From an uncultured virus (IMG/VR IMGVR_UViG_3300022752_000028) (taxonomy: Duplodnaviria > Heunggongvirae > Uroviricota > Caudoviricetes), in the IMG/VR virus record IMGVR_UViG_3300022752_000028: DNA of 59,633 nt; one strand, 5' to 3'. A model generated the notes under the pieces. That model saw nothing but the letters and a program-made list of their open reading frames with translations. It was not told where the DNA came from and did no database searches. The translations under genes were made by a program, and so were the position numbers. The stretch's first letter is position 1. Each line of letters starts with the position of its first letter. This document shows positions 5,299-43,519 of the stretch, piece after piece.

Positions 5299-5334
5299 TT
5301 TCAAAGAACAGATAGCATCATGGAATAAATTTAA

Positions 5335-7638: not shown

Positions 7639-7698
7639 GAAGAAAATATAAATTTTTTGAATGATAATGATTAGGCAATAATAAGGTATGTCTACAAT

Positions 7699-11047: not shown

Positions 11048-11048
11048 A

Positions 11049-11975: not shown

Positions 11976-11977
11976 GC

Positions 11978-12952: not shown

Positions 12953-13905
12953 GCATTGCTGTTATAGGACAAGGATTTGTAGGTGGAAGTCTAACTACAG
13001 TCTTTACAGAGCGCGGATTTAATGTTTATGCCTATGACAAATCAGGAAAGTATGCAAAGGGATCACTACCTAGTCACGGTGATCCTGCTGCTGGTTATCC
13101 TGACTCGATTAATGAGCTTGTTTTAGACAATGAGGATGGAGGCACACCAGGTTTCACAAATGTGTATTTTGTTTGTCTTCCTACGCCTATGTTTGAGGAC
13201 GGGTCTGCAGACCTCAGCATCGTTGAGAGTGTTCTTGAAGAATTAGCCACAATTCCAGGAGAAAGAATCGCTGTAGTTAAATCTACAGTCCCACCAGGAA
13301 CTACAGATGCGTGGAATCAAAAATTTGGCCCACAGGGTCTGCACATAGTCTTTAACCCAGAGTTCTTAACAGAAGCAAATTCTTTAGATGATATGCGCAA
13401 TCAAAATCGAATTATTCTTGGTGGTCCGAGACCATACATTAATCAAGTAAAACAAGTCTTTCAGGAAGCATTTCCAAATGTTCCTATTGTGAAAACAGGA
13501 TCGACAACTGCAGAGATGGTCAAATATGTAACAAACTGTCATCTTGCAGTGAAGGTCTCATTTGCAAATGAGGTTGCACAGATTTGCGAGGCTCTTGATA
13601 AAGAAGGACTCAACATTGACTATGACAAGGTTGTCGAGTATGCCAAGATTGATCGACGACTCGGCGACACACACTGGTCTGTTCCTGGGCCCGTTCCGAC
13701 CCATGACGGTCGTTATGTTCGTGGTTTCGGAGGCCATTGCTTTCCAAAGGACATTAATGCGCTCATGAGCGTTGCACGACAATATGGCGTCGAACCGCGT
13801 GTAATGCAGGCTGCATGGGATAAAAATTTAGAAGTACGTGGGCCAGATGATCGTGATTGGGAAAAGCAAATCGGTCGTGCAGTATCTAAGAAGAATAAAT
13901 CTTAG
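12949..13905 (+). CDS. UDP-glucose/GDP-mannose dehydrogenase family protein (short form)
   Basis: [32 protein letters not shown] and [10 protein letters not shown]. The C-terminal UDP-binding domain is absent. Confidence 0.9.
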
Positions 13906-19908: not shown

Positions 19909-20379
19909 ATGGCAGAGCGCAGCTTTAAAAATATCGGGACGACGGTCACGCAGCTTAGAACAGCTACCCCTACTGTTCCTGTATTTCCAATTGGCATCAA
20001 GACACCGATGACGCTCGGTGGCAATGGTAATCCATACCAGATGCACACGTCTGTTGCTGAACAAGTTCAGGACAACTTGCGCAACATGATCATGACAAAC
20101 TGGGGTGAGCGTCTAGGCCTGTACGACTACGGTGGCAATCTTAGGCTAATTTTGGCAGATTATTCGACCAACTCAGACATTGAGACGACGGTCATGCAGT
20201 CAATCATGCGAACGGTTGAGAAGTACATGCCGTTCGTCACACTTGACACATTTGACATGCAGAACCTCCCGTCGACAAGAAACGGGCAGGCAAAATTTCA
20301 AATCATAGTAAATTACAGCGTCCCAAAGATCGGCGCAAATAACCAGAAAGTTAAGATCATACTAGAGGTGATGGGATAA
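19909..20379 (+). CDS. Baseplate wedge protein, gp25-like
   Basis: QVQDNLRNMIMTNWGERL...YGGNL...VEKYMPFV matches the GPW/gp25 pattern. Confidence 0.85.
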   Translation: MAERSFKNIGTTVTQLRTATPTVPVFPIGIKTPMTLGGNGNPYQMHTSVAEQVQDNLRNMIMTNWGERLGLYDYGGNLRLILADYSTNSDIETTVMQSIMRTVEKYMPFVTLDTFDMQNLPSTRNGQAKFQIIVNYSVPKIGANNQKVKIILEVMG

Positions 20380-22231: not shown

Positions 22232-23743
22232 ATGTATTTAGCACTATCAGCAAGTAAGGATACATACATTACCAATAAAATTATTGGGTCATCTTTCCGT
22301 GCCACAGATGCAAATCTGGGTCAAGCAGGTACACTTGACTTGTTCAAACTGTACGATGAGAACAGGATCATCGGAGAGACAAATCCAATTGAGCTCTCCA
22401 GAATTCTTATAAAGTTTGATTACTCCCCTCTCACAGCACTCCTTGCTACTAAGCTGAACACAAATGACACTTCATTCAAATGTGAGCTAGTTCTAAAGGA
22501 TGTCTATGGTGGCCAACCAACACCCACTAACTTTAAACTAATTGTTTTTCCTCTGTCAAGAAGCTTTGATGAGGGTGTGGGTAGAGACGTTGTCGGCTAT
22601 AGAGACATTGATGTCTGCAATTTTTTAACTGCATCTGTCTCAACCGGTCAAGTTGAGAAGTGGTATGTGACAGGTGCTGATAAGCAAGGGCTGCTAGGAT
22701 CTTCTGACATCGACATCATCTCAAGTGGCAACTTAAATGACGGAAATGGTGTTGTCAATCTTTGGAAAGAGCAGATCTTTGCGTCGGGTGAAGAAGATCT
22801 TAGAGTTGATATAACAGATATTGTATCAGGAACACTTGCAGGCCTCATTCCTGATCATGGGTTTAGAATATCCTTCTCAGGATCGCAAGAGACAGATGAA
22901 TTCACGAGATTTGTGAAGAGATTTACGTCTAGAAATGCCACAAATGTAGGCAAGCGACCCGGAATTGTTGTCACCTACAATGATCTCGTCCGCGACAACC
23001 ACAATAACTTCTTTTTCAATGAGACAGGCACACTTCTCCTGTCAAACAACGTTAGAGGAATTCCTAGAAACATCCTGTCTGGAACGCTTCTCACACCCAT
23101 AACAGGCACAAATTGCATGATCTTGACACTGGCAACAGGATCTTTTACTAAGCAATTCAATGTCTCACAGCTAAGTTACGGTCAGAACTTTATCACAGGT
23201 GTCTACACATCTGACGTTATCCTAAACAGCTTCGAGAATGCAACTGTCTACGATCACCTAATGAGCTCAGGATCGGTTGACTTCACTGAGATATGGGGAT
23301 CCAATGATGGCAAGGTAGGTTATTTAACAGGATCACTCACTGTCTATCGTCCCGATACAGAGCAGTATCATGTTGACCTTGAACGTCTTACAATTAGCAT
23401 GACAAATATGCGGACGTCATACCAGCAAAATGAGCAGTACAGATTTAGGATCTTTATAGAGGACATCACAAGGCAGTTTATAGCTAAGAAGCTGCCTTAC
23501 GAGAACAAGGGAATATTTGTTGAGGACATCTACTACCAAGTTCGTGACACAGATTTGAATGAGGTAATTGTGCCATTCCACGATCCAGGAACAGCTGTGT
23601 CAAATGACACGTCAAGCCACTACTTTGACTTCAATATGACATCTCTTCCGCGCGGGCGCACATACACTTTTGACTTTAAGATCTTGAGAGAGGGCTCGGA
23701 AGTTGTGTTCAAGGACGTTGCAGCAAAATTTAGGGTGGATTAA
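22232..23743 (+). CDS. Virion structural protein (baseplate region)
   Basis: Beta-rich, with an ASKDTYI...SRILIKFD N-terminal motif; lies between gp6 and the large wedge gene; AGGAG SD. Confidence 0.6.
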   Translation: MYLALSASKDTYITNKIIGSSFRATDANLGQAGTLDLFKLYDENRIIGETNPIELSRILIKFDYSPLTALLATKLNTNDTSFKCELVLKDVYGGQPTPTNFKLIVFPLSRSFDEGVGRDVVGYRDIDVCNFLTASVSTGQVEKWYVTGADKQGLLGSSDIDIISSGNLNDGNGVVNLWKEQIFASGEEDLRVDITDIVSGTLAGLIPDHGFRISFSGSQETDEFTRFVKRFTSRNATNVGKRPGIVVTYNDLVRDNHNNFFFNETGTLLLSNNVRGIPRNILSGTLLTPITGTNCMILTLATGSFTKQFNVSQLSYGQNFITGVYTSDVILNSFENATVYDHLMSSGSVDFTEIWGSNDGKVGYLTGSLTVYRPDTEQYHVDLERLTISMTNMRTSYQQNEQYRFRIFIEDITRQFIAKKLPYENKGIFVEDIYYQVRDTDLNEVIVPFHDPGTAVSNDTSSHYFDFNMTSLPRGRTYTFDFKILREGSEVVFKDVAAKFRVD

Positions 23744-23745
23744 TC

Positions 23746-26700
23746 ATGGCAGCAAGCGTTGTTAGAACCAATCGACCCACAGTTTTTACTTCAAATTTGA
23801 AGCTTGCGTCCCTGTCTAATCGATACGATGACGTCACAATCAGCAACCAAGAAGCATCAAATATTGGCAATACAGGTTCCTTTAGATACGACCAGATTGG
23901 AGCTGCATTAAAGTCGACACAAGAACTTAACATCGATTACACACAGCTTGAAAATCACACTTTCTTCAATTCAGCAGTTGCAAAAGTTAACGTTGCATTT
24001 GATAGGATAATCAATAACTACCCATTTGACGGTAGCATCCAAGAGATACAAGATTTTGAAGACAGCTTGACCGGTTATGAGAGGTATATTCTCTCCCAGT
24101 TCACCAAAAGTAGAAACTTCTTACTGTTTGATGGCACGTCACACGTTTCAGTCACTGATGCAGCAGGTATCAATTTTCCAACTGTATCAAAGAATGACAC
24201 AGGCTTAGGAGTTCTTGATCCAAGGACAAATAGCTTCTCATTTGAGTTATTTTGCTATCCTGCAGCACAATCAAATGATAATCAGATCATCTTGCAGAAG
24301 AGAAAAGATGCGACAACAGCAATTACGCTTGCCCTGTCTGAGTCAGCATCAACTGCGTCATGTGATGCTCTCTTTATTGTTTCGATGGGAAGCATGTATG
24401 TGACAGCGTCAGCAGCTGTCAACAAGGGTGAGTTCAATCACCTCTATTTTGAGTACAATGCACTTGCATCATCATCATCGCTTACCATCTATCGAGATCT
24501 TGAACTTGCATCACCCGAGTCAGATTTTGTCGTATTTGACGACTTAAATTTTAGCTCTGCAGATCTTTTAATTGGAACAGGATCGTCACATACAGCGGGT
24601 GCATACACATTCGTCCCACAGCAGCATCTGTCGGGTGCTATAGATGAATTAAGATTTTTCCATGATACAAGATCACTGGCAGATCTTGAATACAACTGGA
24701 AGAAAGAGATTTATGCAACTGCACCCTTGAAGCTGTATTTCAAGTTCAATGAGCCGACAGGCTCTTACGCAGCAAGCGATGTTGTCCTCGACTACTCAGG
24801 TAATTCTCTGCATTCTTACATCACAAACTACAGTGATGCACTGCGTGCTGGAGCAAGTATTGCAAACCCGATGGTCGCTGAAGATCCTGATCGCTGCCCT
24901 GTTCTGTTCGCAGATTATCCGGCAACGCTGACTTACAATCAAACTTTACTGGAAGATGCCCGCGACTTTGATGCAGTTAATCCTAACTTGATCACAAAGA
25001 TCATACCTGCACACTACCTTAGAGAGGGCTTGGTAAGTCAAGGATTTGCTGATGAAGATGGAACAATCGGCAATGACTTTACGGGAACATCAATCCCAGG
25101 AACAGGTGAGATAGGTTCACCCCAGATTATCACGGCAATGCTGCTCGTCTACGCAAAATTCTTTGACGAGCTAAAGATGTTCGTGGATCATTTCTCAAAT
25201 CTTGTCCACGTTGATTATGACCAAGACGTGTCTGTCAGCGACAAGTTTCTGCCATTCCTTGCAAACTATTATGGGTTTGAGGTGCCTTCTTTCTTTAAGA
25301 CAGCTCTGGGTGAGCAGTTCTACGATGGTAGAAACATCACGCAGAATGATGAGAAATTGGCACAAAATCTTGACTACGTGAGAAAGCAGTTGTGGAGACG
25401 CTTGCTAATAAACATGTCAAGCATCATGCGAGAGAAGGGAACTAATTCATCTGTTCGTTCACTCTTTAACGCCGCAGGTATCATTCCTGAGAACTTCTTT
25501 ACAATCAGAGAGTTTGGTGGTCCAAAGAAGAACTTTCTTACAGGTCGTAGAGAGAATAAGACAGAAATTGCCACAATGCTCGACTTCTCCGGTAGCTTAA
25601 ATCTAACACCAGGCACACTCAACTCTCAAGGATTTTCTTCCGTAAAGCCTCACATTATAGGCTCCTTCCTCTCGGGATCACGTGTCGAGCCAGGATATCC
25701 TACAGTTGCTGGAACTCCATCAGACGGTTTGTTCACGTCAGGATCATTTACATTTGAAGGCATCTACAAGTACCTGGATCGTCAAGTTCACTTTGCGTCA
25801 GAGAGCTTGATGCGTCTTCATGTTACAGGAACGTCGGCACCGTCTGACACACACGGCACGCTATTCAACATCATTGCGTCGTCAGGAAGTGAAGAAGGTG
25901 ATTATTCACTGACACTTTACGGTCGACCGCTACAGGGTGTTTCAACAAATGTCATCACGCTGCAGCTAACAGGTGTTAACGTCTTTGATGGTGACAAGTG
26001 GAACATTGCATTTGGCCGCCAGCGCAGTGATCAGATAGGACACGCATCGTCATCCTACTTCCTGCGTGTTGGCAAAAATATCGACACTGAGACAATTGTT
26101 ACATTCCAGACATCATCTTACTTTTATGATGAAGACACGTTTGGAACGACCAATGTCCTCCAAAATGTCAGCAGCAATTATAATGCATCAGGAGCATTTG
26201 TCGTCATCGGATCGCAGAGCCTGGCATCAGGTGCATCATTCTTGAACAGCTACACAGCAGACGCCAAGGTCACTAATTTTACCGGGCGAGTTGCACAGCT
26301 CAGAACATGGTCAAAGGCACTAACAGACACAGAGTTTAGTGAGCACATTCGCAACTTCAAGTCACTCGGTGTTGATGACCCTAAGATCAATTTCTCATTT
26401 GATACAGAGACAACAGGCACATTTGAGCGTCTTCGTGTTGACACAAGCACAGATCAATTTACGACAGGCGCTGATGGAAGTGGACAAATTCAAATCTTTG
26501 ACTTTAGCCAGAACAATTTGTTCATGTCGGGCCTTGGATTTGAGGCAAACGCAAGAGTTATCAAGCCAGAGACATTCTACTACTCTCATTTAGCACCTAA
26601 CTTTGACCAGAGTACGACGACCAATAAAGTGCGCGTGAGGAGTTTGCAGCGCCCGGAGGAATATGACATCAACACGGCGCGCCTCGCACCTGTCTACGAC

Positions 26701-27141
26701 GTCATTAGAAGCGAGGAGCCAGAAGATGATCGTCGTTTCCTCATCGAGTACTCAGTTGTTAAAGCGCTTAACGAGGATATCATCCGCCTCCTGGCAGATC
26801 TTGATTTCTTCAACAACGGTTTGGGAAAACCATCTTACCTCTACGATGAATACTACCCAGACATTGAACAGCTTCGGAAGATCTACTTCAATCGTCTAAC
26901 TGACAAGCTCAACTATAAAGTGTTCTTCGATCTCTTCAAGTGGTTCGACACGTCCTACATAGATCTTGTCAGCTCTTTGATGCCCAAGAAGACACAATTT
27001 CTCGGGATCAACTACACAATCGAGTCGCACATGCTTGAGCGTCATAGGATGCGCTACCTCTACGACCAGCAGTACACGCTAGGCACTATTACTGTCCAGA
27101 ATGAGACAGGTGTGGGATTTGAAACTGGCATCATCACATAG
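23746..27141 (+). CDS. Large baseplate wedge protein (gp7/P2-I-like segment) with LamG/ConA-like domains
   Basis: LSGAIDELRFF, LYFKFNE and FTGRVAQLRTWSKALT are LamG-like. DKFLPFLANYYGF...MREKGT...G resembles the P2 gpI/gp7 core. Confidence 0.65.
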   Translation: MAASVVRTNRPTVFTSNLKLASLSNRYDDVTISNQEASNIGNTGSFRYDQIGAALKSTQELNIDYTQLENHTFFNSAVAKVNVAFDRIINNYPFDGSIQEIQDFEDSLTGYERYILSQFTKSRNFLLFDGTSHVSVTDAAGINFPTVSKNDTGLGVLDPRTNSFSFELFCYPAAQSNDNQIILQKRKDATTAITLALSESASTASCDALFIVSMGSMYVTASAAVNKGEFNHLYFEYNALASSSSLTIYRDLELASPESDFVVFDDLNFSSADLLIGTGSSHTAGAYTFVPQQHLSGAIDELRFFHDTRSLADLEYNWKKEIYATAPLKLYFKFNEPTGSYAASDVVLDYSGNSLHSYITNYSDALRAGASIANPMVAEDPDRCPVLFADYPATLTYNQTLLEDARDFDAVNPNLITKIIPAHYLREGLVSQGFADEDGTIGNDFTGTSIPGTGEIGSPQIITAMLLVYAKFFDELKMFVDHFSNLVHVDYDQDVSVSDKFLPFLANYYGFEVPSFFKTALGEQFYDGRNITQNDEKLAQNLDYVRKQLWRRLLINMSSIMREKGTNSSVRSLFNAAGIIPENFFTIREFGGPKKNFLTGRRENKTEIATMLDFSGSLNLTPGTLNSQGFSSVKPHIIGSFLSGSRVEPGYPTVAGTPSDGLFTSGSFTFEGIYKYLDRQVHFASESLMRLHVTGTSAPSDTHGTLFNIIASSGSEEGDYSLTLYGRPLQGVSTNVITLQLTGVNVFDGDKWNIAFGRQRSDQIGHASSSYFLRVGKNIDTETIVTFQTSSYFYDEDTFGTTNVLQNVSSNYNASGAFVVIGSQSLASGASFLNSYTADAKVTNFTGRVAQLRTWSKALTDTEFSEHIRNFKSLGVDDPKINFSFDTETTGTFERLRVDTSTDQFTTGADGSGQIQIFDFSQNNLFMSGLGFEANARVIKPETFYYSHLAPNFDQSTTTNKVRVRSLQRPEEYDINTARLAPVYDVIRSEEPEDDRRFLIEYSVVKALNEDIIRLLADLDFFNNGLGKPSYLYDEYYPDIEQLRKIYFNRLTDKLNYKVFFDLFKWFDTSYIDLVSSLMPKKTQFLGINYTIESHMLERHRMRYLYDQQYTLGTITVQNETGVGFETGIIT

Positions 27142-27144
27142 TTA
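27138..27144 (+). promoter_or_regulatory. Putative late promoter ATAnTTA (ATAGTTA)
   Basis: 5 nt before the ATG at 27150, with no SD. Confidence 0.45.
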
Positions 27145-27149
27145 TTACC

Positions 27150-27878
27150 ATGTCATACACACCATTTAACGAGAGCCTTCACGTCATTAGAGGCAATTCC
27201 AACCAGGATGGCATAGACATAGCGCCTGTAAGCCAGCTACTCCAGGGCAATGAGATCAGAGATCCACTGCGTCTGAGAAAAGGCATGCTACCTTACATGG
27301 GAATGCGGTCAATCAGAGTCGATGAGCAAGGGCTGTTAGATAAATCAATAGAGATCAACGATCTTGGGCAGGATGTCAAAGCATCAACAACCGCGTATGT
27401 GGATACCACAGAACGCTGGACACCCGCACAGATCGTCCAGGGAGATCTGGCAGAGAGCTTTCTCAGTGAGCTTGCCACACGGCAAGTGATTGATGAGAAA
27501 AATGATGGTCAAATCAGCATTTTTGATCCCAGTGGTATTGAAGTTCCCTTCTCTTCACGTGGTTTCAAGGGAAGCCTCAACGGAGAGAACGAGTATATAG
27601 GAACACAATTGCTAGATAGCAAATACCAGCTGCTCGACGGGCTAGATGATTTTCTAGACGGTCAAGAGGAGATTTTAGGAATAACAGTTCCTGCAATCTT
27701 GTCCATGAATGACCAGCTTCTAAAGCCCTTCGAAGATCTAAGGCACGACGACACGGATCGATTTGGTATCAATATTTTAAACCAGAATGTAAATCTGTAT
27801 GATCGATATGCGGCAGGAGGTTTTGTGTATGCAGGCAATGACCGCGACTCAATCGCCTTCGGCGGGCTTAAAGGCTGA
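27150..27878 (+). CDS. Hypothetical protein, probably structural
   Basis: Clean ORF within the baseplate block. Confidence 0.6.
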   Translation: MSYTPFNESLHVIRGNSNQDGIDIAPVSQLLQGNEIRDPLRLRKGMLPYMGMRSIRVDEQGLLDKSIEINDLGQDVKASTTAYVDTTERWTPAQIVQGDLAESFLSELATRQVIDEKNDGQISIFDPSGIEVPFSSRGFKGSLNGENEYIGTQLLDSKYQLLDGLDDFLDGQEEILGITVPAILSMNDQLLKPFEDLRHDDTDRFGINILNQNVNLYDRYAAGGFVYAGNDRDSIAFGGLKG

Positions 27879-27880
27879 CA

Positions 27881-30217
27881 ATGTCAACTAAATTTCTTAG
27901 AAAAACTGTAAGGCGCATCATAAGAGACAATGACCAGTTCCAAGATGCATATCCCAAGCTGATCAGATCATCAGATCCGCTTGATAACGGTATCGACAGT
28001 AACATAAAGTTTTCAGATAATAGGACAATCGTATTCTCAACAAACAATACGACATTTCCTGCGATGGTTCCCGTTGGATCAACAACGCTACCTTCTAGTT
28101 CAATCAGCGCAAATGTTGTTATTGATGTTGCCGCCGTTGAACAGAGTGTGCAACTACCAGGCAGCGTGGAGGGGCTTGAGCCTTTCAATGAGAGCCTTTT
28201 CAGTATTCCAGGAACAAGTGAATATACAACAACGTCTTCTCTAGCATACGGATTTACATCTGCAGCACGCAACAAGATTGCGATACCGATTGATATTACA
28301 CCCACCCAAGAAAAGCTTCTCTGCCGCCTGAGATCGGGAGAAGTAAACACAAATCCCAATAGTGAGTTTTACGGTAAGCCAAGCACAGGATTTTGCTATT
28401 TTAATTTTGATTTAAAACGCTGGGAAGATATTGGCTTTGGATATGCACCCTCTTACAACGGACATATGGGTAAGTTTTCAGGACACCGATATTTTATGGC
28501 ACAGTTCCAGGGAACATCAAACCTTGCACACATAACCAACGCATACGGATCCAGTCAAAATGCAATGACAGCTGTAGGTTATAAAAACATTGGTTCACCT
28601 ACAATGTTCTTTGACGCGCCAAACGCTAGAAGGTATTACGCAACGGGTAGTCAGGCATTGTCTCTGTCAAGCTACATTGATCAACCTTTCATGCTTGAAA
28701 GAGTTGACGTAACTTTGCCATTTGTCGCAAGAAGAAAACATCCAGGTCAGCCATTCACATCAAATATAAAAGATGGTGCTTATCGAGATGTTGATAACCT
28801 TGTATTTTTTCTCTATAGACAGACACAGCCTCCAAGTGATCATCCAGACGGTGCACAAAGAACAAGCCAGCGGTTTCTCATCACAAATGGGTCACTTACA
28901 TTCTATAATAGTAAAGTTAATGAAGCAGTCAGCTTTACAACACATAATCCAGAATTTAGCTATGACTATAATATTCCACTAACGTCTATAGTTGCAAGTA
29001 CTTTTACAGGTTCAGTTACATTCTCAATTTACCCGAAAGACTATCCAGCACAGTTTGGAGGCATTTCGTCATTCTCATCAGACACGGGTTATAGCGGTAC
29101 AACTTATCTTGTTGAAACTATGAATTTTTGGCCGGGTAGCGTGCAGAATATTGTAACAGCATCTGTTGATGCTGATGTTGACAATGCCGGGTTTTATGTC
29201 TACAGAACAAGCAACGCACCTGTAGCAGGAGATGATTACGCAGACACAAGATTTAAAGGTTTTGTCTCAACAGACACGCGCTTACTGAAAAGAGTCGAGG
29301 GATCTTTAATACCATCAAGTGGCATTATAAGCAATGCGCTTCCACAGACAGGCAGCTCACCTTACCTTCTCCTTCCTACAGATCAGTTAATCTTTGGAAT
29401 TGAGTCAGATGTCTGCACAGTTCTGCCTACGGGATCTTTGACATCACCAAACGGCTATGACGATTCGTTTTTAAGCCAAACAGGCTCATTCTTTAAGCTT
29501 CTTGCAGAGAAGGCACAAGTTACTTTATTCGGTTCACTTATACAGAGCGGTATCTCTAAGACACACAACAGCCTTAACCAAAATTTAATCTCACCTGCCG
29601 TGCATGAGATTGTTGCAAATATACAAGATGATAGTGACCAGTTTGACGTGGCCGAGAAGAAAACTTTCTACGGTAATTACATTGATAACTACGTGGCAGG
29701 TTCGATATTAGATGGCACGCGTCGCGTTTATGCTAGCTTGACAAATGACCCACCATTTCTATCGGGATCATTCACACGTCAAGTTATGTTAGTAGATGAT
29801 CAGAAAACTTACTACCAGAACGGGCCAACGACAATCTCAATTGGGCCCCCACCGTTTACATCTTTTTTTGATATTGCATACAGCAACCCTACAAAACCAA
29901 AGAACTATTTTAGATACGATCGATACGGTAATCTTAGAGACATGCTTGAGCAGGCACGGGATTACAGAATATTTAACAAAACCATCTACAAAAAAAGTGG
30001 AGGATTTGAAGAACAAGGGCCCGCATACGCCAAGTTCGTCTTGTCATCATCTGACATACCTGTGTCAGCATCACTAACCCAGTGCAATAACCTTAGCCCG
30101 TACATGACGGGAACATTTCCATTTGCTGATGATGTTGGAACGTCAACTTCACGCGGCCCGTACACAACAACGCAGAATAATCCCTTCATTCCGATCACCA
30201 ACATTTTCAAGACATGA
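27881..30217 (+). CDS. Ser/Thr/Gly-rich virion protein (candidate fibre or receptor-binding protein)
   Basis: 778 aa, beta-rich, many TGS triplets; function inferred from context only. Confidence 0.5.
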   Translation: MSTKFLRKTVRRIIRDNDQFQDAYPKLIRSSDPLDNGIDSNIKFSDNRTIVFSTNNTTFPAMVPVGSTTLPSSSISANVVIDVAAVEQSVQLPGSVEGLEPFNESLFSIPGTSEYTTTSSLAYGFTSAARNKIAIPIDITPTQEKLLCRLRSGEVNTNPNSEFYGKPSTGFCYFNFDLKRWEDIGFGYAPSYNGHMGKFSGHRYFMAQFQGTSNLAHITNAYGSSQNAMTAVGYKNIGSPTMFFDAPNARRYYATGSQALSLSSYIDQPFMLERVDVTLPFVARRKHPGQPFTSNIKDGAYRDVDNLVFFLYRQTQPPSDHPDGAQRTSQRFLITNGSLTFYNSKVNEAVSFTTHNPEFSYDYNIPLTSIVASTFTGSVTFSIYPKDYPAQFGGISSFSSDTGYSGTTYLVETMNFWPGSVQNIVTASVDADVDNAGFYVYRTSNAPVAGDDYADTRFKGFVSTDTRLLKRVEGSLIPSSGIISNALPQTGSSPYLLLPTDQLIFGIESDVCTVLPTGSLTSPNGYDDSFLSQTGSFFKLLAEKAQVTLFGSLIQSGISKTHNSLNQNLISPAVHEIVANIQDDSDQFDVAEKKTFYGNYIDNYVAGSILDGTRRVYASLTNDPPFLSGSFTRQVMLVDDQKTYYQNGPTTISIGPPPFTSFFDIAYSNPTKPKNYFRYDRYGNLRDMLEQARDYRIFNKTIYKKSGGFEEQGPAYAKFVLSSSDIPVSASLTQCNNLSPYMTGTFPFADDVGTSTSRGPYTTTQNNPFIPITNIFKT

Positions 30218-30227
30218 TGACACTGTT

Positions 30228-30234
30228 ATAATTA
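30228..30234 (+). promoter_or_regulatory. Putative late promoter ATAnTTA (ATAATTA)
   Basis: Intergenic, 7 nt before the ATG at 30242, with no SD. Confidence 0.5.
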
Positions 30235-30241
30235 GAATAGC

Positions 30242-31255
30242 ATGTCTGGTATTCTCGATTCAAAAACACGCATCATGGACGTCGTTCTCACTGTTGAGGG
30301 CCGTCGCCAGCTCGCTGCAGGAAAATTTGTCCCACAGTTCGCATCTTTTACAGATCGACACGTTTTCTACGCAAAAGATGCTGTGAGTGGATCAGATGAT
30401 GCATCTTCATACATCTACTTTGAAGCAGGCAATCGTGTCCAGGATCAGATCGTCATCGAGAACGACGACAGTGGCTTGCTGGTTCCTTATGACGGCAGTA
30501 CGACAAGAGTTTCGTCTGATGGTCGAGTTTACTCCGCGTCTATCAATACGCTGACATCACCGGGTGGAGTGGGAACTTACAATCGCGTCAACTATACCCC
30601 TGTGACGAGCTCATTTGCATCCATGTTTGAGCTGGTCAGCGGATCCATCCTTGACAGTCTGACTGAGCAGCAACTCATCCAGACGTCACTACCCTACGAG
30701 ATCTACAGTCAATTCAAGCTGACGACAGGATCTATCACTTTTCGAAGAAACAATTTTATCCCGTTTCGTGGAACGCAGCCTGTAGGACAGATTGGATCAC
30801 TTGATCCTTTCATGATTGATCGGCAACTCTCTCATCTAGACAATTTTCAGTTTTTAGCTCCTGTCTATGTAGATGATACTGACATACAGCAAAATTTGGG
30901 CACGTACCTGCCAATCTCTGAAGTAGAACCACTGACTTATGATGAGCTGATGCGCAATCTTGTCGGATCAGATCCTCAAGTGCCTCTCAAGGAGAAGATA
31001 ACTGTTGACTTTGCTGAGACATCGCTTGCGAGCAACGTCTTCATGCAGATCTTTGAAGGCTCAACAACAGATAGCACAGGTGTTGAGATGCTCAAGAAAC
31101 TTGACTGCATTGACTTTGGTGAGTTTAAAGATGAGAATGACAGGCAGCGCCCGTTCAAGCGCGTATTTTTCGTCGGCAAGGTTTATGCTGCTGACAGCGA
31201 GGATAACTTTCAGGCACCTGCCTTCGTCAATCTCTTTACAATCGTGGCGGAGTAA
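30242..31255 (+). CDS. Structural protein with a tail-collar-like N-terminus
   Basis: GILD...DVVLTVEGRRQLAAG is paralogous to the N-terminus of the ORF at 39253. Confidence 0.55.
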   Translation: MSGILDSKTRIMDVVLTVEGRRQLAAGKFVPQFASFTDRHVFYAKDAVSGSDDASSYIYFEAGNRVQDQIVIENDDSGLLVPYDGSTTRVSSDGRVYSASINTLTSPGGVGTYNRVNYTPVTSSFASMFELVSGSILDSLTEQQLIQTSLPYEIYSQFKLTTGSITFRRNNFIPFRGTQPVGQIGSLDPFMIDRQLSHLDNFQFLAPVYVDDTDIQQNLGTYLPISEVEPLTYDELMRNLVGSDPQVPLKEKITVDFAETSLASNVFMQIFEGSTTDSTGVEMLKKLDCIDFGEFKDENDRQRPFKRVFFVGKVYAADSEDNFQAPAFVNLFTIVAE

Positions 31256-36600: not shown

Positions 36601-37386
36601 CGTGTAACTAAAGGGTACACATTTTCAACGCGTGTCTTTGTCAACGAAGGATCACAGTTAACAGATGGGGCCGACACTAAAGCAAGCGAACTGACTAATT
36701 ATAGTCAGATTTATAGTGCTACAAAATACAAAGTTGTTGACGATACTGGAAACTACCGTGACATCACCGTTACAGATCTTGAGCGTATCTTAGGTGACAG
36801 AAAAATTGTTGATAACCACCTCATGAGCCACTATGCAAAGCTACTGTTGAAGACGACAGCAGGTATAACACTCGATGAGGAAGTTTTTGATCTTGTTCCT
36901 CAAGTTAGAAGCTATCCAGATGCTGCCCAGGATGCTAATTACACGACAATAGTTGATCGAATTTCAGTCAACTATCCAGATACACCGGAAGGCCAGCTGA
37001 ACAAGGAGCGCGTATTTCGCGATCTATCGAGGTCAATACAACTTGCACCCGATCAGCACAAGATATCAATGATGGTGTCAAAGACATTTGAAAGGATACA
37101 TGTGATACCTGTCGACGTCAGTGAAGTTATTGAGCAACTCCAGATCAGCAGAGAAGACATTGCATTCTTAGATGTCGTCGCTAAGATACGTCTTGAAGAT
37201 AGCCAGCCTCCTGTCACATTTGAGGCAGCAACAACACGTAGAAGCTACTCAAATGCGCTCCAGAACGCTTTAACAACATTTGTGGAGACAGACGTTAGAT
37301 CACAAGGTATCGATAGTGTAGGAATAAACAGAGTTATCGAGACAAGCAATCGATTTGGTGGACGCCTAGGAGGCAATAACAGATGA
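33673..37386 (+). CDS. Large hypothetical virion protein (about 1237 aa)
   Basis: Long ORF coupled to both neighbours, with a GAGGTGG SD, a repetitive N-terminus and an AT-rich centre. Confidence 0.6.
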   Translation: MPYDYRSTLSNLQVQAQRNRTADTATNAFSDAQSAREEAGSRGTTAEDITTRLAQRGPSFGSPGPTINDRGTAAGALASRLGQRGPSFGSRSTTGAVRGSVQQRQNYGSMLQQMLEDDQDYNLLDASSRDVYLTASHGLTSQYPAILLTTPRTAKVVDVGSGLTTTPFIIDLNNEVKKTVERDVKAALDQNSAVLQLTTTQYDQNVQIANDYANRCIQASISKDALIKLLRINNISLQQNVNDVSNFIIGDANDTPYIYMSGKENIDAYFKSLVDNYNTSVFTEGSNTQAVTQILKTIFNYFVIGDISFQDLSDDTQQGIAKKSIIDGYLNKLYADEVVNLRSIIPADDSQAIVLLNSNSNVRFSFQAYKNADNITSLTRLIQRDIVAHGNLVQTAETQNYNSSQELISYYTGPFSSIQVSYSAGTVINFDKVNDIFANSYTNINEIIEDSGRPEIQRFRRALIGTEDGVSYGKLDDGRGIDYLIYDEILGGSLPIQFSNLTSTANLYSNYAQEIYNLVVKSITSNLSASQREIVRKIKDYFLSFIRGSGIDTDEISSLGSAFRIGCFIMAANDDKIAARLFRYICTKDKQIHGITNDTEIEVSKNELHDAIAEKIGVSSLTGDKLRFLGSISDGGKRSFNIERSNSLRYMEGDDTSFQTFHNIIRSTEEAYINTYNFENVPNGTTPFGAGLTRDARAFVIFNLFLAVLRETKCSVEISKTTTSSDGVSTSTTSMKIQYYPIQFSSLKFALENSEASPRQLDTSLDQYISTVGDFTTSLGFSGLDTDAVDKLKNDVKYLHSTYFNAIVQKIDQQNQTCLDLSNLLVNHAAQIKAQMNDLKVKLQGVTNLISSNNLLGTEAVINTVQLEQAILKKNIVDRYTNLLRGAPYLPSAVDHDVGQALNTKTVVATYPDLNDPVNDALTRKFLIAVGIPTGLMENLRYQNTISTSEHLYSIDLVFKNLQVTQEEEDIQTFEARVTKGYTFSTRVFVNEGSQLTDGADTKASELTNYSQIYSATKYKVVDDTGNYRDITVTDLERILGDRKIVDNHLMSHYAKLLLKTTAGITLDEEVFDLVPQVRSYPDAAQDANYTTIVDRISVNYPDTPEGQLNKERVFRDLSRSIQLAPDQHKISMMVSKTFERIHVIPVDVSEVIEQLQISREDIAFLDVVAKIRLEDSQPPVTFEAATTRRSYSNALQNALTTFVETDVRSQGIDSVGINRVIETSNRFGGRLGGNNR
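33796..33941 (+). repeat. Degenerate 84-nt in-frame tandem duplication
   Basis: Exact 23-mer CAGCGAGGGCCGAGTTTTGGGTC at 33835 and 33919, plus AGAGGAACA at 33796 and 33880; both pairs are 84 nt apart. Confidence 0.9.
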
Positions 37387-39203
37387 CTGAGACAGTCATA
37401 TCAAAACCTGCTTTGTTAGTTGATCTTCCCGAAGTCAGCAGCATAGAAGCAAAGTTCGTCTACAACTTTTTTACGCCCGATGAGCGTACTAACGAGACGT
37501 CTAATGTGTACGGTAGCGTCGGTTTTACATCGACCGACGTTGATCTAACAACATCAACGTATACAGATAATATCGGTACATCGAACATACAAAATGAAAC
37601 GCTCAGAGCGTTTTATGGGCGAAACGCCGTCTATCCTAGATTTAATAGGATAACTATCATAAAGCCTCCTGTCAACATTGATAGAAACTTATCTATTAGA
37701 AGAACAGATATAAAAGGAAATGTTGCTCGAGAAGCTGCGCTCAATGTGTTTGGAAGAGTAGGTGTCAGCATTATTGACACAACGCTGGACAAGACAATTT
37801 ATCGCATCCTATCAGGGTCGATCTCATCTCTTGAGAGACAGGAATCGAATAGCGCATCTCAAAGAATTCTTGATGCTGTCGTGAATAGCATACAACCTGA
37901 CGGATACAGGTATGCAGTATCTGATATGCGTCAAATCAAAGTCAGTGCTGTTGAAGAGACACTACGTGGTCTTGAGTTTGGCTTTTCTTTTCTACCTACT
38001 GTTGCAGGAACAGTTGCAGATGCCAGCCTAAACTCACCGAAGAATGTTTATGCAGATGAGATCTCTAGTACACAAACTGAATTGAACGAAGTTGAAGATC
38101 AATCTGTTGCTGGGAGCAGGCCATACGTTCTTAGAACGTCTGACTATGAAGCAGATTTTAATTTTATTGATGATGTAGTCATCGTCTCACCAACACTCAA
38201 GAATAATTTAATCGGCTACATCATCCAAAAGTTTGGCACACGTGACGATGGAACAATTGACATCTTTAGTGAGAAGCTTGAACTCAATCCAAATACAACT
38301 TCGTTCATCGATCCTGAGATCGCATACGGAAGACGCTACAAGTACAGAGTGATCTCTCTGTATGCATGTCAGTTTCAGATGAACCAGCAAGTGACGACAG
38401 CATTTGGAACTGAAGAAGATAAACCTGTGACCAGGTATGCCCTGTTTGCGTCAAGAGGCTCAGATGCATCCGTCGTCTGTGAAGAGTACATTGCACCTCC
38501 TCCACCCGTTGATCTCGCATTTAGATATCGAGCTGATAATACAGGCTTAAACATTACGTGGAATTTTCCCATCAACTTGCAAGCCGACATTAAGAAAATT
38601 CAAGTTTTTCGGAGAAGCTCGACTTCGGAGCCATTTCAGTTGCTCAGAATGTACGACTTTGACGACTCAGTTATCAAGACATCAGATCCAGAGAGTGTAC
38701 CAGAACGTCTGATAACACGTAGCTTGCTACCCACTACGCTGCACAGAGACACAGAGTTCACTAAGAACAGTAGGTTCATCTATGCAGTGTGCGCCATCGA
38801 CGCGCACGGCTACACGTCTAACTACTCAGTGCAACTTGAAGCATCTTACGATAGATACCGCAATAGGATTAACACACGTGTCATCTCTAGATCCGATGCG
38901 CCTAAGCCATATCCTAACATTTTTCTCAACCGTGACACATTTGTCGATACCATGAAGATGTCAGGCTACACACGCCTCAACATTTATTTTGATCCTGAGT
39001 ACATCAGCATCACAGATGCAACTGGCGATGATCAAGAGCACGTTGTCTTCAACAATAACCGCGGCGATGATAACAGCTATAAGCTACTTGTTGTTAATAC
39101 TGACTTCCAACAGAGCCAAACACTTGATATTAAGATCAACGATAGTTATGTTGAACCTCCAGTTATCACGCCTTCGACAGCCCGTGTCTTTAGGCCTACG
39201 TAA
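37383..39203 (+). CDS. Structural protein with fibronectin type III-like domains
   Basis: FIDPEIAYGRRYKYRV and APPPPVDL...LNITW...VFRR...FIYAVCAIDAHG.TSNYS follow the FN3 pattern. Confidence 0.6.
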   Translation: MTETVISKPALLVDLPEVSSIEAKFVYNFFTPDERTNETSNVYGSVGFTSTDVDLTTSTYTDNIGTSNIQNETLRAFYGRNAVYPRFNRITIIKPPVNIDRNLSIRRTDIKGNVAREAALNVFGRVGVSIIDTTLDKTIYRILSGSISSLERQESNSASQRILDAVVNSIQPDGYRYAVSDMRQIKVSAVEETLRGLEFGFSFLPTVAGTVADASLNSPKNVYADEISSTQTELNEVEDQSVAGSRPYVLRTSDYEADFNFIDDVVIVSPTLKNNLIGYIIQKFGTRDDGTIDIFSEKLELNPNTTSFIDPEIAYGRRYKYRVISLYACQFQMNQQVTTAFGTEEDKPVTRYALFASRGSDASVVCEEYIAPPPPVDLAFRYRADNTGLNITWNFPINLQADIKKIQVFRRSSTSEPFQLLRMYDFDDSVIKTSDPESVPERLITRSLLPTTLHRDTEFTKNSRFIYAVCAIDAHGYTSNYSVQLEASYDRYRNRINTRVISRSDAPKPYPNIFLNRDTFVDTMKMSGYTRLNIYFDPEYISITDATGDDQEHVVFNNNRGDDNSYKLLVVNTDFQQSQTLDIKINDSYVEPPVITPSTARVFRPT

Positions 39204-39237
39204 TATTTAACTTATAACTTCAAGCAAAGAATATTTA
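39203..39237 (+). promoter_or_regulatory. Two copies of the putative late promoter ATATTTA
   Basis: At 39203-39209 and 39231-39237 in the intergenic gap, followed by AGGTG SD and the ATG at 39253. Confidence 0.5.
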
Positions 39238-39252
39238 GAAACAGGTGTACAA

Positions 39253-39957
39253 ATGGGTTTTCTCAATCAAACAACAAACAACATCATCGTTGACGCAGTT
39301 TTAACTGACCTAGGTCGACAGTTTCTCGCGAGAAATGATGGTAGTTTCAACATCGTTAAGTTCGCACTAGCAGACAATGAAGTTGACTACACTATCATCC
39401 AGCAATACGGACGACTTGTTGGAAAAGACAAGATCGAGAAGAACACGCCAGTATTTGAAGCTTCAACCAACGCAAACATTGCGCTCAAGTACAAGCTGGT
39501 AAGCATCTCGAATCCTGCCTTGACATTGCTCCCATCCCTCACACTTGATTACGGATCAGCGATCGTTAATTCTAATGTCGTGTCGATCTCACGCCTCACA
39601 CAGAACCCATCTCTCACGATCACTGTTAAGCAGTCGATCACGCAAGGTAACTTTGTCTCACCTGAGCTCATTGATAATGCATTTGAAGTTCGCGTCAACG
39701 ACCTGTTCCTAGGGCTCCAGAACCTCGTGCCCGACTCAGTTGATGCAAGCAACAATGCAACCTACCTTGTTGACAGGTCGTCAGCACTGTCAAGTGCAAG
39801 TGAAGCTTCCGGACAGTTCACACTGCGCCTCAAGACATTCTCTCAGACGCTGTTCGACACATACAAGTCAAGTGGCCTCAATGTTGTTAGAACATACGTT
39901 CGTATTACAGGCATCAATTCAGGTGCCGTCAAAGAATTTGAAGTAAGGATCAGCTAG
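39253..39957 (+). CDS. Structural protein with a tail-collar-like N-terminus
   Basis: IVDAVLTDLGRQFLAR...IVKFALADNEVDY resembles the start of the P2 gpH/DUF3751 collar domain. Confidence 0.6.
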   Translation: MGFLNQTTNNIIVDAVLTDLGRQFLARNDGSFNIVKFALADNEVDYTIIQQYGRLVGKDKIEKNTPVFEASTNANIALKYKLVSISNPALTLLPSLTLDYGSAIVNSNVVSISRLTQNPSLTITVKQSITQGNFVSPELIDNAFEVRVNDLFLGLQNLVPDSVDASNNATYLVDRSSALSSASEASGQFTLRLKTFSQTLFDTYKSSGLNVVRTYVRITGINSGAVKEFEVRIS

Positions 39958-39965
39958 GATAAAAA

Positions 39966-41162
39966 ATGCCCACATTTAAAGAGATAACTGCTGCAGATAT
40001 CAAGACTAGCAGATCAGCACTCAACCAGCTGGTCGACGTCATCCAGAACGACATCTCGAGCTCAGATACGCGCAAGAAGTATCAAGTGTTCGTCACAGGC
40101 GGCATAGGGCCTGGCGTCACATCATCGCTGTTTCAGACAGTTTTCGATCAGGATTACACTCTGCAGACGGCAAATGAGGTGCTCGACTTAACAGTAGGCC
40201 TCTTCTCAGGTAGCTCAACAGTTGCTGGTAGCACAACTGGCGTCGATTCAGCAGGCAAGCTTCTCTTCCCATCGCAGTCATTGATGATGAGAGAGAAGAT
40301 CAACGTCTACCGACAATTTGCACAGACGCTGCTCGGCGACGCAGATGCTCAGTTTACAGCACCATTCAGCAATCCTGCAACAACTGACTACATTGACGAA
40401 GCAATATTCGTCAACATTAAGCGTCTATTCGCACGCGACCGTGTCAAGCCACAGACATTTGCGATGCAATTCTACACATCGGCAACACTTGATCGTGTAG
40501 CTGATCCCGTGAATGGCACATTTACTAATACAGACGAGACATCTGAGATTGGATCAGCCATTTTGACAGATGCGGGTCAAGGGACGCAGTTTGGTTTCGG
40601 TGGTCAAGTTGGCGATATTGCATTCTCCACGCTGTCATCTAATGTCGTAGGCAATCTCTTCTACGATCAAGGCATCATAGTTCTAGACGCCAAGAAGGTT
40701 CTATCAGGGACGCAACATGTGTCGGGAACAATTGACGCTATGTCATCAGGCGGTACAACTGTAATCGGAAGTGCAAGTGGAAATACAAATGCCAAATTTA
40801 TCCCTGATTTCTTTGTCTCAGGATCGATTGACGATATTGTTGACCATCTTGCATCCTGCAGATTTAGCTCGGGCTCACTCACAGCACTGACATTCCAGAA
40901 TGTCACCAACATCAACTCGACATTGGTGTTCTGTCGTGCCACAGCGGATGAGTTCAACTACTCGTCAAATCCCACGTTCACTGACGCAGACGGTAACATC
41001 ATTGTCATCGATGATCCCACAACTGATCGTACCTTCAGTTACATCACAACGGTGGGCCTCTACGATGCAAACGATAACTTGCTGGCAGTTGCCAAGATGA
41101 GTCGTCCAATCGAGAAGAATGATGAGAAGGATTTGACATTCCGCGTTCGACTTGACTTCTAA
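39966..41162 (+). CDS. Baseplate/tail-collar-type structural protein
   Basis: VGNLFYDQG, EFNYSSNPTF and C-terminal YITTVGLYDANDNLLAVAKMSRPIEK...FRVRLDF. Confidence 0.62.
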   Translation: MPTFKEITAADIKTSRSALNQLVDVIQNDISSSDTRKKYQVFVTGGIGPGVTSSLFQTVFDQDYTLQTANEVLDLTVGLFSGSSTVAGSTTGVDSAGKLLFPSQSLMMREKINVYRQFAQTLLGDADAQFTAPFSNPATTDYIDEAIFVNIKRLFARDRVKPQTFAMQFYTSATLDRVADPVNGTFTNTDETSEIGSAILTDAGQGTQFGFGGQVGDIAFSTLSSNVVGNLFYDQGIIVLDAKKVLSGTQHVSGTIDAMSSGGTTVIGSASGNTNAKFIPDFFVSGSIDDIVDHLASCRFSSGSLTALTFQNVTNINSTLVFCRATADEFNYSSNPTFTDADGNIIVIDDPTTDRTFSYITTVGLYDANDNLLAVAKMSRPIEKNDEKDLTFRVRLDF

Positions 41163-41176
41163 TGTGAGGGAGGACG

Positions 41177-43519
41177 ATGTCATTCATCAAGCTGCAGCCT
41201 GAGAACTTCGACACGTTCTCTCTCACACTGCGGCCTCGCGCCGAGTTTGTGTCGTCTTCAAGCGGGATCACAGGATCAGTTCGGTTGATAGAACGGCCGA
41301 GTGCCTATCTTAAGGAAGAAATTTCTGCAGGAGAGCGAGGGACAGCTACGTTTAGAGAAGCACCCGACCTCCCAGATTTTGTGGAAGCCATTAGAAATTT
41401 AATGATCACAGAAGAAGATCGGCGTGGTCCTTTATCAAGTTATTACATGCTGATAGTGAATGCTCTTGCGCAAAATCAGAAAAATAACATTGTCATTCCT
41501 ATCCAGCGTATAACACAGTCGATTGAATTTGATCGCAACTCATTCACTAAAAGTAACATCAAGAATGTACTGATGCCCCAGTACCGCTCTGTCTACACAG
41601 ATTGTGATTACTCTTACAAGAATTATCACACGATCAACTTCTTCACAGCATCGACGGTTCCTAGTGACAGCGCAATCATCTACCCAAATATAGATGACCA
41701 ATACACATTGACAGATGCTTTTAGCTTTGATTTTTACATCAATCCTCGGTATTTAGCAGACGCAGGTACTAGCTTTAATGCAGGTGCTATTCTGCACATG
41801 TCGTCATCAATTTGTGTGTCACTACACACAGGATCGCACAAGAACGCAGACGGTCAAGTTGATCAATTTCGTCTTGCAGTAGGCTTTAAGCACAGCGCAA
41901 ATGAGACACCTAACAGCATTGATGTTACACAGGTAAATGGATCAAGATCATATCCACAAGATTTAATCTACGTCAGCGATGATAATCTCTTAAAGCATAA
42001 CAACTGGCATCATGTTTCAATTCGTTGGGGCGCATCATACAACAACGGATCAGGATCTTTCACAATTGATGCTACGACATCTTCTTTCTACTACCCAAGC
42101 AGCTCAATTGTAGGAAGCCAGAAACCTGACGTTCTCATCTTGGGAAATCAGTATGTTGGAAGTGATACGACGGCAAAGTTCTTCAACAGCGTAGTTGCTA
42201 ACACAGCAACAGGTGAAGGTGTAACGCAACTCGACGCAGGCACAAGCGACCCAACAGGTTTCACGTTTTCAAGCCCGCTCAATGCCGAAATACATGATGT
42301 AAAGCTCTTCAATAGAGTTTTGACAAATAATGAAGTAAGTAACTTTAGAAACAACGCAAATGATGCCGACACAAACGGCTTAATATTCTACGTCCCACCA
42401 ATCTTTACAAATTGTGCAACTAAGTTTCAGAGAGACTTTATAACACCTGTAGGTAAAGCACCGGTAAGGTACCCTACGACACCTTACAATGTCAATCTTG
42501 CAGCAAGCACACAAGTATTTAGTCCTAACTTACAAAATTTCTTGTTTGATATAAAAAACTATAGTGCTCCGCGCCTGTATAAGCTCACGTCGTCTGTAGA
42601 GGCTTACGTGGGTGTAAAGTACGCCGTTGATCACATGTTTAGACAGCCGGAATTTATAAAGAGAGCCTACACGATACTCCCAAATGATAACGGTCTCTTT
42701 TTACCAAATTTCCAGCTAGTACCAACAAGTTCGGTAATCTCAGAATACAACCCTTATAGTGATATCTTTTCTAATATCGATAAAACGTCGATAAGCTTAC
42801 TCAATATTGATACGACAAGCATGTCTAGATCAGGTGGCTCAGGCTCTGTACAACCCCTTTCAGCAGGTGAGACTCAATTTTATCTGACGCCGGAAGACTA
42901 TAACACTACAGCAATTCTTACTGCAGGTAACTCAACAACACTTTTCTCATTCACTACAACATCATCATTTGCTGATAGATCAAGCAACCTGTCGACGATC
43001 TACCAGGTTAGCAATCTCTACTACGGTAATCAGATCTTCCCACAGACATTTACTTTGTCATCAACATCTCTGACAGGCTCGGGTGATAAGATCAATATCA
43101 CGCTTAAGGACAATGGATTCGGTGGACTTTACCGCGCAGACGCAGTCACACCTCCACCTACGTGGGCAACTGTAGGTAACCTCTTCTATGACGAAGGGCT
43201 TGCAATCATCAAGTCGCCTCACCTCTACTACTTCGGCAAGGATAATTTCTCTGTCTCGTTCAATGGGTCGCAGAATATCCACACATATACCATCGATGCT
43301 ATCTGTCCAGCTGGAGAGATCAACTCATCATCTAATCCGAGTTACCTATCATTCCCGCCCACAAATGAACAGAATGAAACGGCAGATAACTTCGTGTACA
43401 TCACGGGCATCAATATTCACGACGACAACTTCAACGTTATTATGAGAGCGAACCTGGCGCAACCAGTGCTCAAGAGGCCCGATGAAGAGTTTCTCTTTAG
43501 AATTAAGTACGACATGTGA
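41177..43519 (+). CDS. LamG-containing structural protein, C-terminally paralogous to 39966-41162
   Basis: NNWHHVSIRW and AEIHDVKLFNRVLT are LamG-like. VGNLFYDEG, EINSSSNPSY and YITGINIHDDNFNVIMRANLAQPVLK...FRIKYDM match the neighbour. Confidence 0.65.
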   Translation: MSFIKLQPENFDTFSLTLRPRAEFVSSSSGITGSVRLIERPSAYLKEEISAGERGTATFREAPDLPDFVEAIRNLMITEEDRRGPLSSYYMLIVNALAQNQKNNIVIPIQRITQSIEFDRNSFTKSNIKNVLMPQYRSVYTDCDYSYKNYHTINFFTASTVPSDSAIIYPNIDDQYTLTDAFSFDFYINPRYLADAGTSFNAGAILHMSSSICVSLHTGSHKNADGQVDQFRLAVGFKHSANETPNSIDVTQVNGSRSYPQDLIYVSDDNLLKHNNWHHVSIRWGASYNNGSGSFTIDATTSSFYYPSSSIVGSQKPDVLILGNQYVGSDTTAKFFNSVVANTATGEGVTQLDAGTSDPTGFTFSSPLNAEIHDVKLFNRVLTNNEVSNFRNNANDADTNGLIFYVPPIFTNCATKFQRDFITPVGKAPVRYPTTPYNVNLAASTQVFSPNLQNFLFDIKNYSAPRLYKLTSSVEAYVGVKYAVDHMFRQPEFIKRAYTILPNDNGLFLPNFQLVPTSSVISEYNPYSDIFSNIDKTSISLLNIDTTSMSRSGGSGSVQPLSAGETQFYLTPEDYNTTAILTAGNSTTLFSFTTTSSFADRSSNLSTIYQVSNLYYGNQIFPQTFTLSSTSLTGSGDKINITLKDNGFGGLYRADAVTPPPTWATVGNLFYDEGLAIIKSPHLYYFGKDNFSVSFNGSQNIHTYTIDAICPAGEINSSSNPSYLSFPPTNEQNETADNFVYITGINIHDDNFNVIMRANLAQPVLKRPDEEFLFRIKYDM

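Follow-up and report, generated by a model that had tools for sequence, protein, structure and literature searches.

A Ser/Thr-Gly-Ser triplet enriched in outer tail proteins of a tailed phage lineage as a candidate O-glycosylation sequon for a phage GT4 enzyme pair

Does a tripeptide that recurs in otherwise dissimilar tail proteins of a phage mark the sites at which the phage would glycosylate its own virion? This question is raised by a stretch of 59,633 nucleotides from an uncultured virus of the Caudoviricetes (IMG/VR IMGVR_UViG_3300022752_000028), hereafter the window, which is the latter half of a virus contig of 121,633 bases. The window encodes a T4-like capsid protein, portal, prohead protease, terminase and gp25- and gp6-like baseplate proteins, and further two Glycos_transf_1 enzymes, starting at 14767 (GT4-A) and 16011 (GT4-B), together with a sugar-synthesis cluster. 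The first-pass annotation had noticed a [S/T]-[G/A/S]-S triplet in six open reading frames (ORFs) and had proposed it as an acceptor sequon for a phage glycosyltransferase. These ORFs, and a wedge gene used as internal negative control, are listed below with motif counts, which here and throughout are given as observed versus expected and with lengths in amino acids (aa).

22232..23743, plus strand: outer baseplate-region protein of 503 aa, motif-rich (6 [ST][GA]S versus 0.7)
23746..27141, plus strand: 1131-aa protein with a laminin-G/concanavalin-A domain (PF13385, E 8.7e-11), motif-rich (10 versus 2.5)
27881..30217, plus strand: 778-aa protein of no known family, motif-rich (8 versus 2.3)
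30242..31255, plus strand: 337-aa protein of no known family, motif-rich (4 versus 0.7)
39966..41162, plus strand: 398-aa core protein of the lineage, motif-rich (4 versus 1.2)
41177..43519, plus strand: 780-aa protein, motif-rich (6 [ST][GA]S versus 1.9; 9 [ST]SS versus 1.8)
20379..22223, plus strand: baseplate wedge (gp6-like; PHROG 6), internal negative control, motif not enriched

All 32 distinct tetramers cited by the first-pass annotation were found in the ORFs it had named. In the six ORFs taken together (3,927 aa), [ST][GAS]S occurred 58 times compared to 16.9 times in 500 composition-preserving shuffles, [ST]GS 28 times compared to 4.8 (about 6-fold) and [ST]SS 20 times compared to 7.4, with none of the shuffles reaching the observed number in any of these cases; for [ST]AS (10 versus 4.7), 9 of the 500 shuffles did. 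The two top tripeptides were TGS and SGS (0.0012 and 0.0046, respectively, after correction for 8,000 tripeptides), and the excess of [ST]GS persisted when residues were shuffled inside 30-residue windows (28 versus 6.0, 0 of 2,000 shuffles) as well as under a conservative dipeptide-preserving null (28 versus 17.8, p 0.015). Under the latter, the Ala and Ser forms were not significant in the six ORFs. The recurrence in dissimilar proteins was thus borne out and the enrichment over shuffled sequences is real, although what stands of the triplet as first written is its core, [ST]-G-S, the Ala and Ser forms being weaker and differing by protein.

The attribution to structural proteins at large held for the six ORFs but not for the other 14 structural or presumed structural ORFs of the window (a grouping of our own, made partly by position), where [ST]GS was not enriched (3 versus 5.8); neither was it in the 35 non-structural ORFs of the window (5 versus 3.8). 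An out-of-sample count of 30 versus 6.9 came from three fibre-like genes that precede the window and were outside the view of the first-pass annotation; their fibre role is presumed from repeats and composition. A DNA repeat as the source of the motif was ruled out: 73 sites are encoded by 49 distinct 9-mers, with both codon types in use for the third Ser (TCN 56, AGY 17), in agreement with the original view of a protein-level pattern. The hydrophobic flanks were likewise confirmed, such a residue preceding 42 and following 40 of the 73 sites against a background of 32%. In the same analysis, neither N-x-S/T (47 versus 45.7) nor the Bacteroidota sequon D-[ST]-hydrophobic (7 versus 19.0) was enriched.

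The closest annotated relatives, judged by the capsid and 39966 proteins, are Flavobacterium phage immuto, Microcystis phage Mel-JY01, Rhodothermus phage RM378 and the uncultured phage LR756508. Besides the motif and the GT4 pair, the phage of the window has its capsid, terminase and baseplate genes in common with immuto, Mel-JY01 and RM378. The lineage is large and T4-like, and about 11,000 IMG/VR stretches match its baseplate pattern. Cultured immuto carries 116 motif sites versus 46 genome-wide, along with both GT4 enzymes (gp181 and gp180). Orthologs of all six window proteins were enriched, with [ST]GS counts of 192 versus 32.9 for 22232 and motif counts of 137 versus 24.9 for 23746, 19 versus 3.8 for 27881, 43 versus 8.2 for 30242, 181 versus 30.6 for 39966 and 400 versus 71.3 for 41177. 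The enrichment of motif-bearing orthologs was at least 3-fold in 78 of 79 related loci (median 6.1). In a dereplicated set of 135 homologs (75,352 aa), TGS was enriched 6.7-fold and SGS 4.9-fold, compared to only 1.7-fold for [ST]GT and mostly at most 1.3-fold for X-G-S with a first residue other than Ser or Thr; between S/T and S, Gly was enriched 5.6-fold, Ser 2.5-fold, Ala 2.1-fold and any other residue at most 1.4-fold. Position 1 is therefore Ser or Thr, position 2 small and position 3 strongly Ser. An ordered short motif is thus enriched beyond composition throughout the lineage.

Its distribution over the virion is uneven. When roles in lineage genomes were assigned via homology to the immuto annotation, the motif was frequent in sheath (32 versus 7.2) and capsid (14 versus 6.0), and scarce in tube (0 versus 0.3), portal (0 versus 1.8), tape measure (2 versus 4.4) and wedge (1 versus 2.9). 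In 80 more distant loci, the proteins encoded after the wedge gene held 938 sites versus 166, compared to 24 versus 35.9 in the wedge itself and 48 versus 52.9 in upstream genes. Within the close subgroup, the motif even seems to be avoided by the wedge orthologs (1 versus 19.6 in 39 sequences), more so than in the distant ones. Hence the motif is biased to outer, outward-facing tail parts rather than inner ones.

We then asked how the motif relates to protein fold. Viral contigs were selected with a DNA pattern encoding a six-residue beta-repeat, in one version with T-G-S and in the other with T-G-N at the equivalent place; the first 80 of 124 TGS and of 121 TGN loci were used, and the two seeded copies were removed. 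TGS-seeded loci contained 3,176 sites versus 767, whereas TGN-seeded loci, from unrelated phages with the same beta-repeat, contained 336 versus 301 (1.1-fold); the beta-repeat therefore does not require Ser. Two ortholog alignments, of 43 and 33 sequences, place the motif in 34 and 50 distinct columns, with 110 and 134 parsimony changes, respectively. Conserved sites exchange Gly, Ala and Ser at the middle position and retain both hydroxyls: at one of them, S-x-S is kept in 43 of 43 sequences with Gly in 20, Ala in 20 and Ser in 3. The predicted structure of the 22232 protein (predicted local distance difference test score, pLDDT, 82.5) comprises an N-terminal carbohydrate-binding-module-like domain (best fold match 8wab_B, Z 16.8, root-mean-square deviation 2.9, 171 aligned) and two immunoglobulin-like (Ig-like) domains; Foldseek against the PDB returned generic Ig-like matches only. 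On this model, strands wholly contain 100 of 267 sites, the remainder being spread over turns, helix ends, coil and insertions, so that the surface loops expected by the first-pass annotation are only half right. One of the two Ig-like domains carries 155 sites versus 24.2, the other 4 versus 5.3. The 39966 model (pLDDT 73.6) has fold matches only to uncharacterised phage proteins, and its C-terminal domain is common to the 41177 protein; its sites are mostly coil, with the first residue in a strand in 0 of 241. The motif is thus independent of fold and position, and has been gained and lost repeatedly.

The enzymes that might read such a motif, and a cluster that might elaborate the glycan, are encoded upstream of the wedge gene:

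14767..16011, plus strand: GT4-A, first gene of the pair; PF00534 above the Pfam cut-off, E-x7-E in 80 of 80 homologs
16011..17168, plus strand: GT4-B, second gene of the pair; PF00534 above the Pfam cut-off, E-x7-E in 66 of 70 homologs
6..13905, plus strand, beginning upstream of the window: variable cluster for sugar synthesis and accessory glycosyltransferases, from Pfam matches

E-x7-E is the signature of the GT4-type (Glycos_transf_1) family. Among solved structures, GT4-A best matches chlorovirus B736L (PDB 3oy2; E 4.6e-11, profile positions 7-310); for GT4-B no solved relative was found at 1e-5, and its look-alike clusters in the ESM Atlas are listed as viral. GT4-B follows GT4-A in 78 of 78 viral loci. 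Of 80 more distant loci, 10 end too early to judge; the other 70 all have GT4-B behind GT4-A, so that no further loss of GT4-B was found among them. Homologs of GT4-B from cellular organisms are distantly related to it, and motif-rich genes do not adjoin them in any of 80 loci. The adjoining cluster has matches to GT2, GT11, GT17, NeuB, cytidylyltransferase, GDP-mannose dehydratase, epimerases and methyltransferases, and its content varies among relatives while the pair is constant. In Mel-JY01 (PP395634, 83441-84932), GT4-A appears as a pair of ORFs, alongside an intact GT4-B and a strong motif. Two contigs of proteobacterial metagenome-assembled genomes (MAGs; L168:9836-11218 and L169:3-1442) contain a GT4-A homolog by itself, with 51% identity to 14767, among ordinary bacterial genes and with neither GT4-B nor phage genes adjoining; it is possibly a captured phage gene. 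Upstream of the window, directly after the fibre-like genes, lies a 625-aa gene (G000:C1:54064-55941) that looks by eye like a two-domain glycosyltransferase; its counterpart in a related genome (G002) is 48% identical and likewise follows fibre-like genes, and no BLAST match was found in immuto.

The presence of the pair was compared with that of the motif. Among pattern-seeded contigs of at least 50 kb, both GT4 genes were found in 10 of 23 TGS-seeded but in 0 of 16 TGN-seeded ones (Fisher p 0.002). Most of these contigs are fragments, and the one complete TGS contig without the two genes was unenriched around the match (4 versus 3.2); 5 of the 23 TGS-seeded contigs match the 39966 profile. 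Equal frequency in homologs from phages without glycosyltransferases would have counted against the first-pass proposal; phages that have the beta-repeat but not the GT4 pair lack the enrichment. The genome-wide motif ratio was 2.1-2.7 in six genomes with GT4-B compared to 1.1-1.9 in eight genomes or stretches that have no clear GT4-B ortholog; in Ser/Thr/Gly-rich proteins the two ranges, 2.3-4.1 and 0.5-2.1, nearly touch. TJE1 and a Streptomyces phage, which have weak GT4 homologs, gave no clear motif signal.

The informative case is LR756508, which is nested in the motif-rich clade (clade support 100 and placement 82 in the joint tree; placement 95 and 63 in single-gene trees). Its 484-kb record contains no GT4-B anywhere; GT4-A and the sugar cluster are kept, and an unrelated gene follows GT4-A. 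Five matched outer proteins of LR756508 have 5 sites in 3,430 aa, compared to 24 in immuto, 37 in another lineage genome (G018) and 27 in Mel-JY01. Among 25 core genes, defined as immuto genes common to Mel-JY01 and the subgroup of the window (BLAST E 1e-4, ORFs of at least 100 aa), LR756508 is without only GT4-B and PhoH, the latter being also present in motif-free outgroups. Three close relatives of LR756508 are too short for a comparison of GT4-B.

We propose that the phage GT4 pair reads [ST]-G-S as an O-glycosylation sequon, an explanation that we consider fairly probable from the sequence comparisons. The idea put forward in the first-pass annotation is thereby partly supported: the enrichment, the lack of the enrichment in pairless phages with the same beta-repeat and the extensive but incomplete loss of the motif in LR756508 speak for it, this evidence being comparative. 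The pair would O-glycosylate [S/T]-G-S in the host cytoplasm, tolerating Ala or Ser in the middle, by recognising a short segment in extended form whose two hydroxyls are spaced two residues apart; strands, turns and loops of dissimilar folds could therefore all serve as substrates. The third Ser, the stricter position, may be either the acceptor or a recognition hydroxyl. GT4-B would be the likelier reader or priming enzyme, and the variable cluster next door would extend the glycan. The resulting coat may shield or stabilise fibres, outer baseplate and sheath, leaving wedge, tube, portal and tape measure bare. Sugar attachment, the pair as its agent, GT4-B as motif reader and the cluster as glycan extender are all steps that we infer.

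Several observations weigh against this proposal. The TGS-seeded contigs apparently belong to one broad lineage, and their co-occurrence with the pair therefore reflects kinship and is not independent evidence; more generally, all motif-rich genomes form one clade, so that the co-occurrence amounts to one gain and one loss. LR756508 is also poorer in Ser (0.06-0.08 versus 0.09-0.14), and compositional drift may contribute to its motif loss; besides, it has a residual motif (5 versus 2.1) and retains GT4-A and a large sugar cluster. RM378 is motif-rich (51 versus 19) despite a very divergent GT4-B with a degenerate E-x7-E, and LR756511 and the Streptomyces phage stretch reach 2.1-fold in Ser/Thr/Gly-rich proteins (small counts), close to the lowest genome with GT4-B (2.3-fold). 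No GT4-B match was found in 14 of 33 contigs of the motif lineage, all of them fragments. Of the two examined, G058 is cut before the GT4 pair, and G070, motif-rich and 83% complete, has neither GT4 gene and also lacks the neighbouring nuclease, PhoH and other genes of the GT4 block. The nuclease itself, of the PD-(D/E)XK type (window 13928-14743), lies directly before the pair in most relatives, including immuto and LR756508. Finally, orthologs of the primase, a non-virion enzyme, hold 44 [ST]GS sites versus 10.4 in 53 sequences, about one site each, an excess presumed to reflect one conserved site. In the primase of the window (44063-45025), [ST]GS stands at the extreme C-terminus.

Three other explanations have to be weighed. 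The triplet could be a structural preference, such as a beta-turn, a hydroxyl ladder or a capping motif, that became fixed in the beta-rich outer proteins of the lineage, the GT4 pair being co-inherited. Near-invariant sites, the absence of first motif residues from strands in the 39966 model and the single clade that holds both motif and enzymes would fit such a preference. It has difficulty, though, with the phages that build the same beta-repeat with Asn and remain unenriched, with sites that span strands, hairpins, helix ends, coils and insertions, with the interchange of Gly and Ala at fixed sites and with the unlike Ig-like domains of 22232. Moreover, orthologous LR756508 proteins do with few sites, and Ser/Thr/Gly-rich proteins of S-SRM01 and XacN1 reach only 1.2-fold and 1.1-fold, respectively. 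We therefore regard a purely structural origin as unlikely.

Alternatively, the triplet might be recognised or modified by a factor that is not the pair, whether a host enzyme, an enzyme of another modification (phosphate, acyl) or a partner such as a chaperone or decoration protein. The order of the motif, its turnover and its bias to outer parts suit any sequence-reading factor, and the subtraction of core genes would, at the thresholds used, miss small or fast-evolving genes. Yet the recorded hosts of the three cultured members (Flavobacterium, Rhodothermus and Microcystis) differ so widely that a shared host enzyme is less likely, and LR756508 lacks no other lineage-specific core gene; we rate this option as quite unlikely. 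More doubtful still is that the pair and the cluster act on DNA or on a host surface polysaccharide and have nothing to do with the motif. The adjoining nuclease gene and a weak 'GT4-conflict' Pfam match below the cut-off could be read in this way, and a jumbo-phage review, in its accessible part, takes glycosyltransferase clusters of cyanophages as host polysaccharide modifiers (PMC7824862). The clusters of that review are sporadic, however, whereas the pair is almost invariant. Digested DNA of immuto, which has the pair, was reported in the accessible part of the source to contain dA, dC, dT and fdPreQ1 only and no glycosylated nucleoside (published liquid chromatography with ultraviolet detection and tandem mass spectrometry; bioRxiv 10.1101/2023.04.13.536721), making a DNA target less likely. 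The joint loss of GT4-B and motif in LR756508 would also be left unexplained.

If our proposal of a sequon read by the GT4 pair is true, a very abundant aquatic phage group bears a glycan coat on its tail, and the triplet amounts to a minimal cytoplasmic O-glycosylation tag. A broader version, which we put forward tentatively, is that this very common group of aquatic tailed phages carries its own sequon-based O-glycosylation system, with GT4-B as reader, [S/T]-[G/A/S]-S on all outward tail parts as target, a swappable sugar cluster and a tag portable to any protein. The claim is directly testable since immuto is cultured and has the motif as well as both enzymes, and LR756508 points to GT4-B as the enzyme to address first.

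Two further observations concern the lineage. MAGs named as unrelated bacteria or archaea hold contigs with its gene order (L164-L167 and L643-L659), and one genome contains a tandem pair of full-length major capsid protein genes (G002:C1:176269-180150) that are 62-64% identical to the capsid protein of the window.

We found no description of the motif in a literature search that was thin on subscription papers and preprint supplements. The accessible text of a paper on moraphages, which describes four core putative glycosyltransferases, does not mention it (PMC12619734). Among known systems, the dodecameric iron-finger heptosyltransferases TibC/AAH resemble the proposed one, as far as the consulted part of the source goes, in being dedicated cytoplasmic-type enzymes that place many sugars on Ser of a beta-rich surface protein, but they act on one beta-helix fold (PMC4358343), whereas the phage motif occurs in several folds; the 49 solved-structure matches of GT4-A do not include TibC. 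Chlorovirus B736L/A546L (PDB 3oy2), described in the available part of its source as uncharacterised in activity and acceptor (PMC9614988), is a viral GT-B enzyme related to GT4-A and comes from viruses that glycosylate their own capsid, the glycans there being N-linked at atypical Asn sites.

In the GtfA/GtfB system of serine-rich repeat proteins, according to the accessible portion of the source, an adjacent conserved glycosyltransferase pair primes Ser/Thr O-glycosylation and variable transferases extend the glycan (PMC6973325). The likeness lies in the conserved adjacent gene pair with variable further transferases and in acceptors with alternating serines. GtfB, however, is described in that portion as a chaperone, whereas both phage enzymes keep E-x7-E, and DUF1975, a feature of GtfA/GtfB, is absent from the Pfam matches of both phage enzymes at E 0.001; the acceptors there are long repeats served by an accessory secretion system, while those of the phage are scattered triplets in folded domains with no such system. 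Virion glycosylation in mycobacteriophages was reportedly described by Freeman et al. in 2023. Phage-encoded glycosyltransferases decorate mycobacteriophage virion proteins, with the glycans placed C-terminally on subunits of the capsid and tail tube according to the accessible parts of two papers (PMC12619734, PMC10877033). Both cases have phage-encoded glycosyltransferases and virion proteins as targets, proposed ones in our case. The lineage studied here, known to us as sequence, differs in that its tripeptide sites number in the tens, lie at internal positions of the chain and occur on fibres, outer baseplate and sheath but not in the tube. If true, the use of a short sequon away from the chain ends, served by two dedicated phage enzymes, would be a new mode of phage virion glycosylation.

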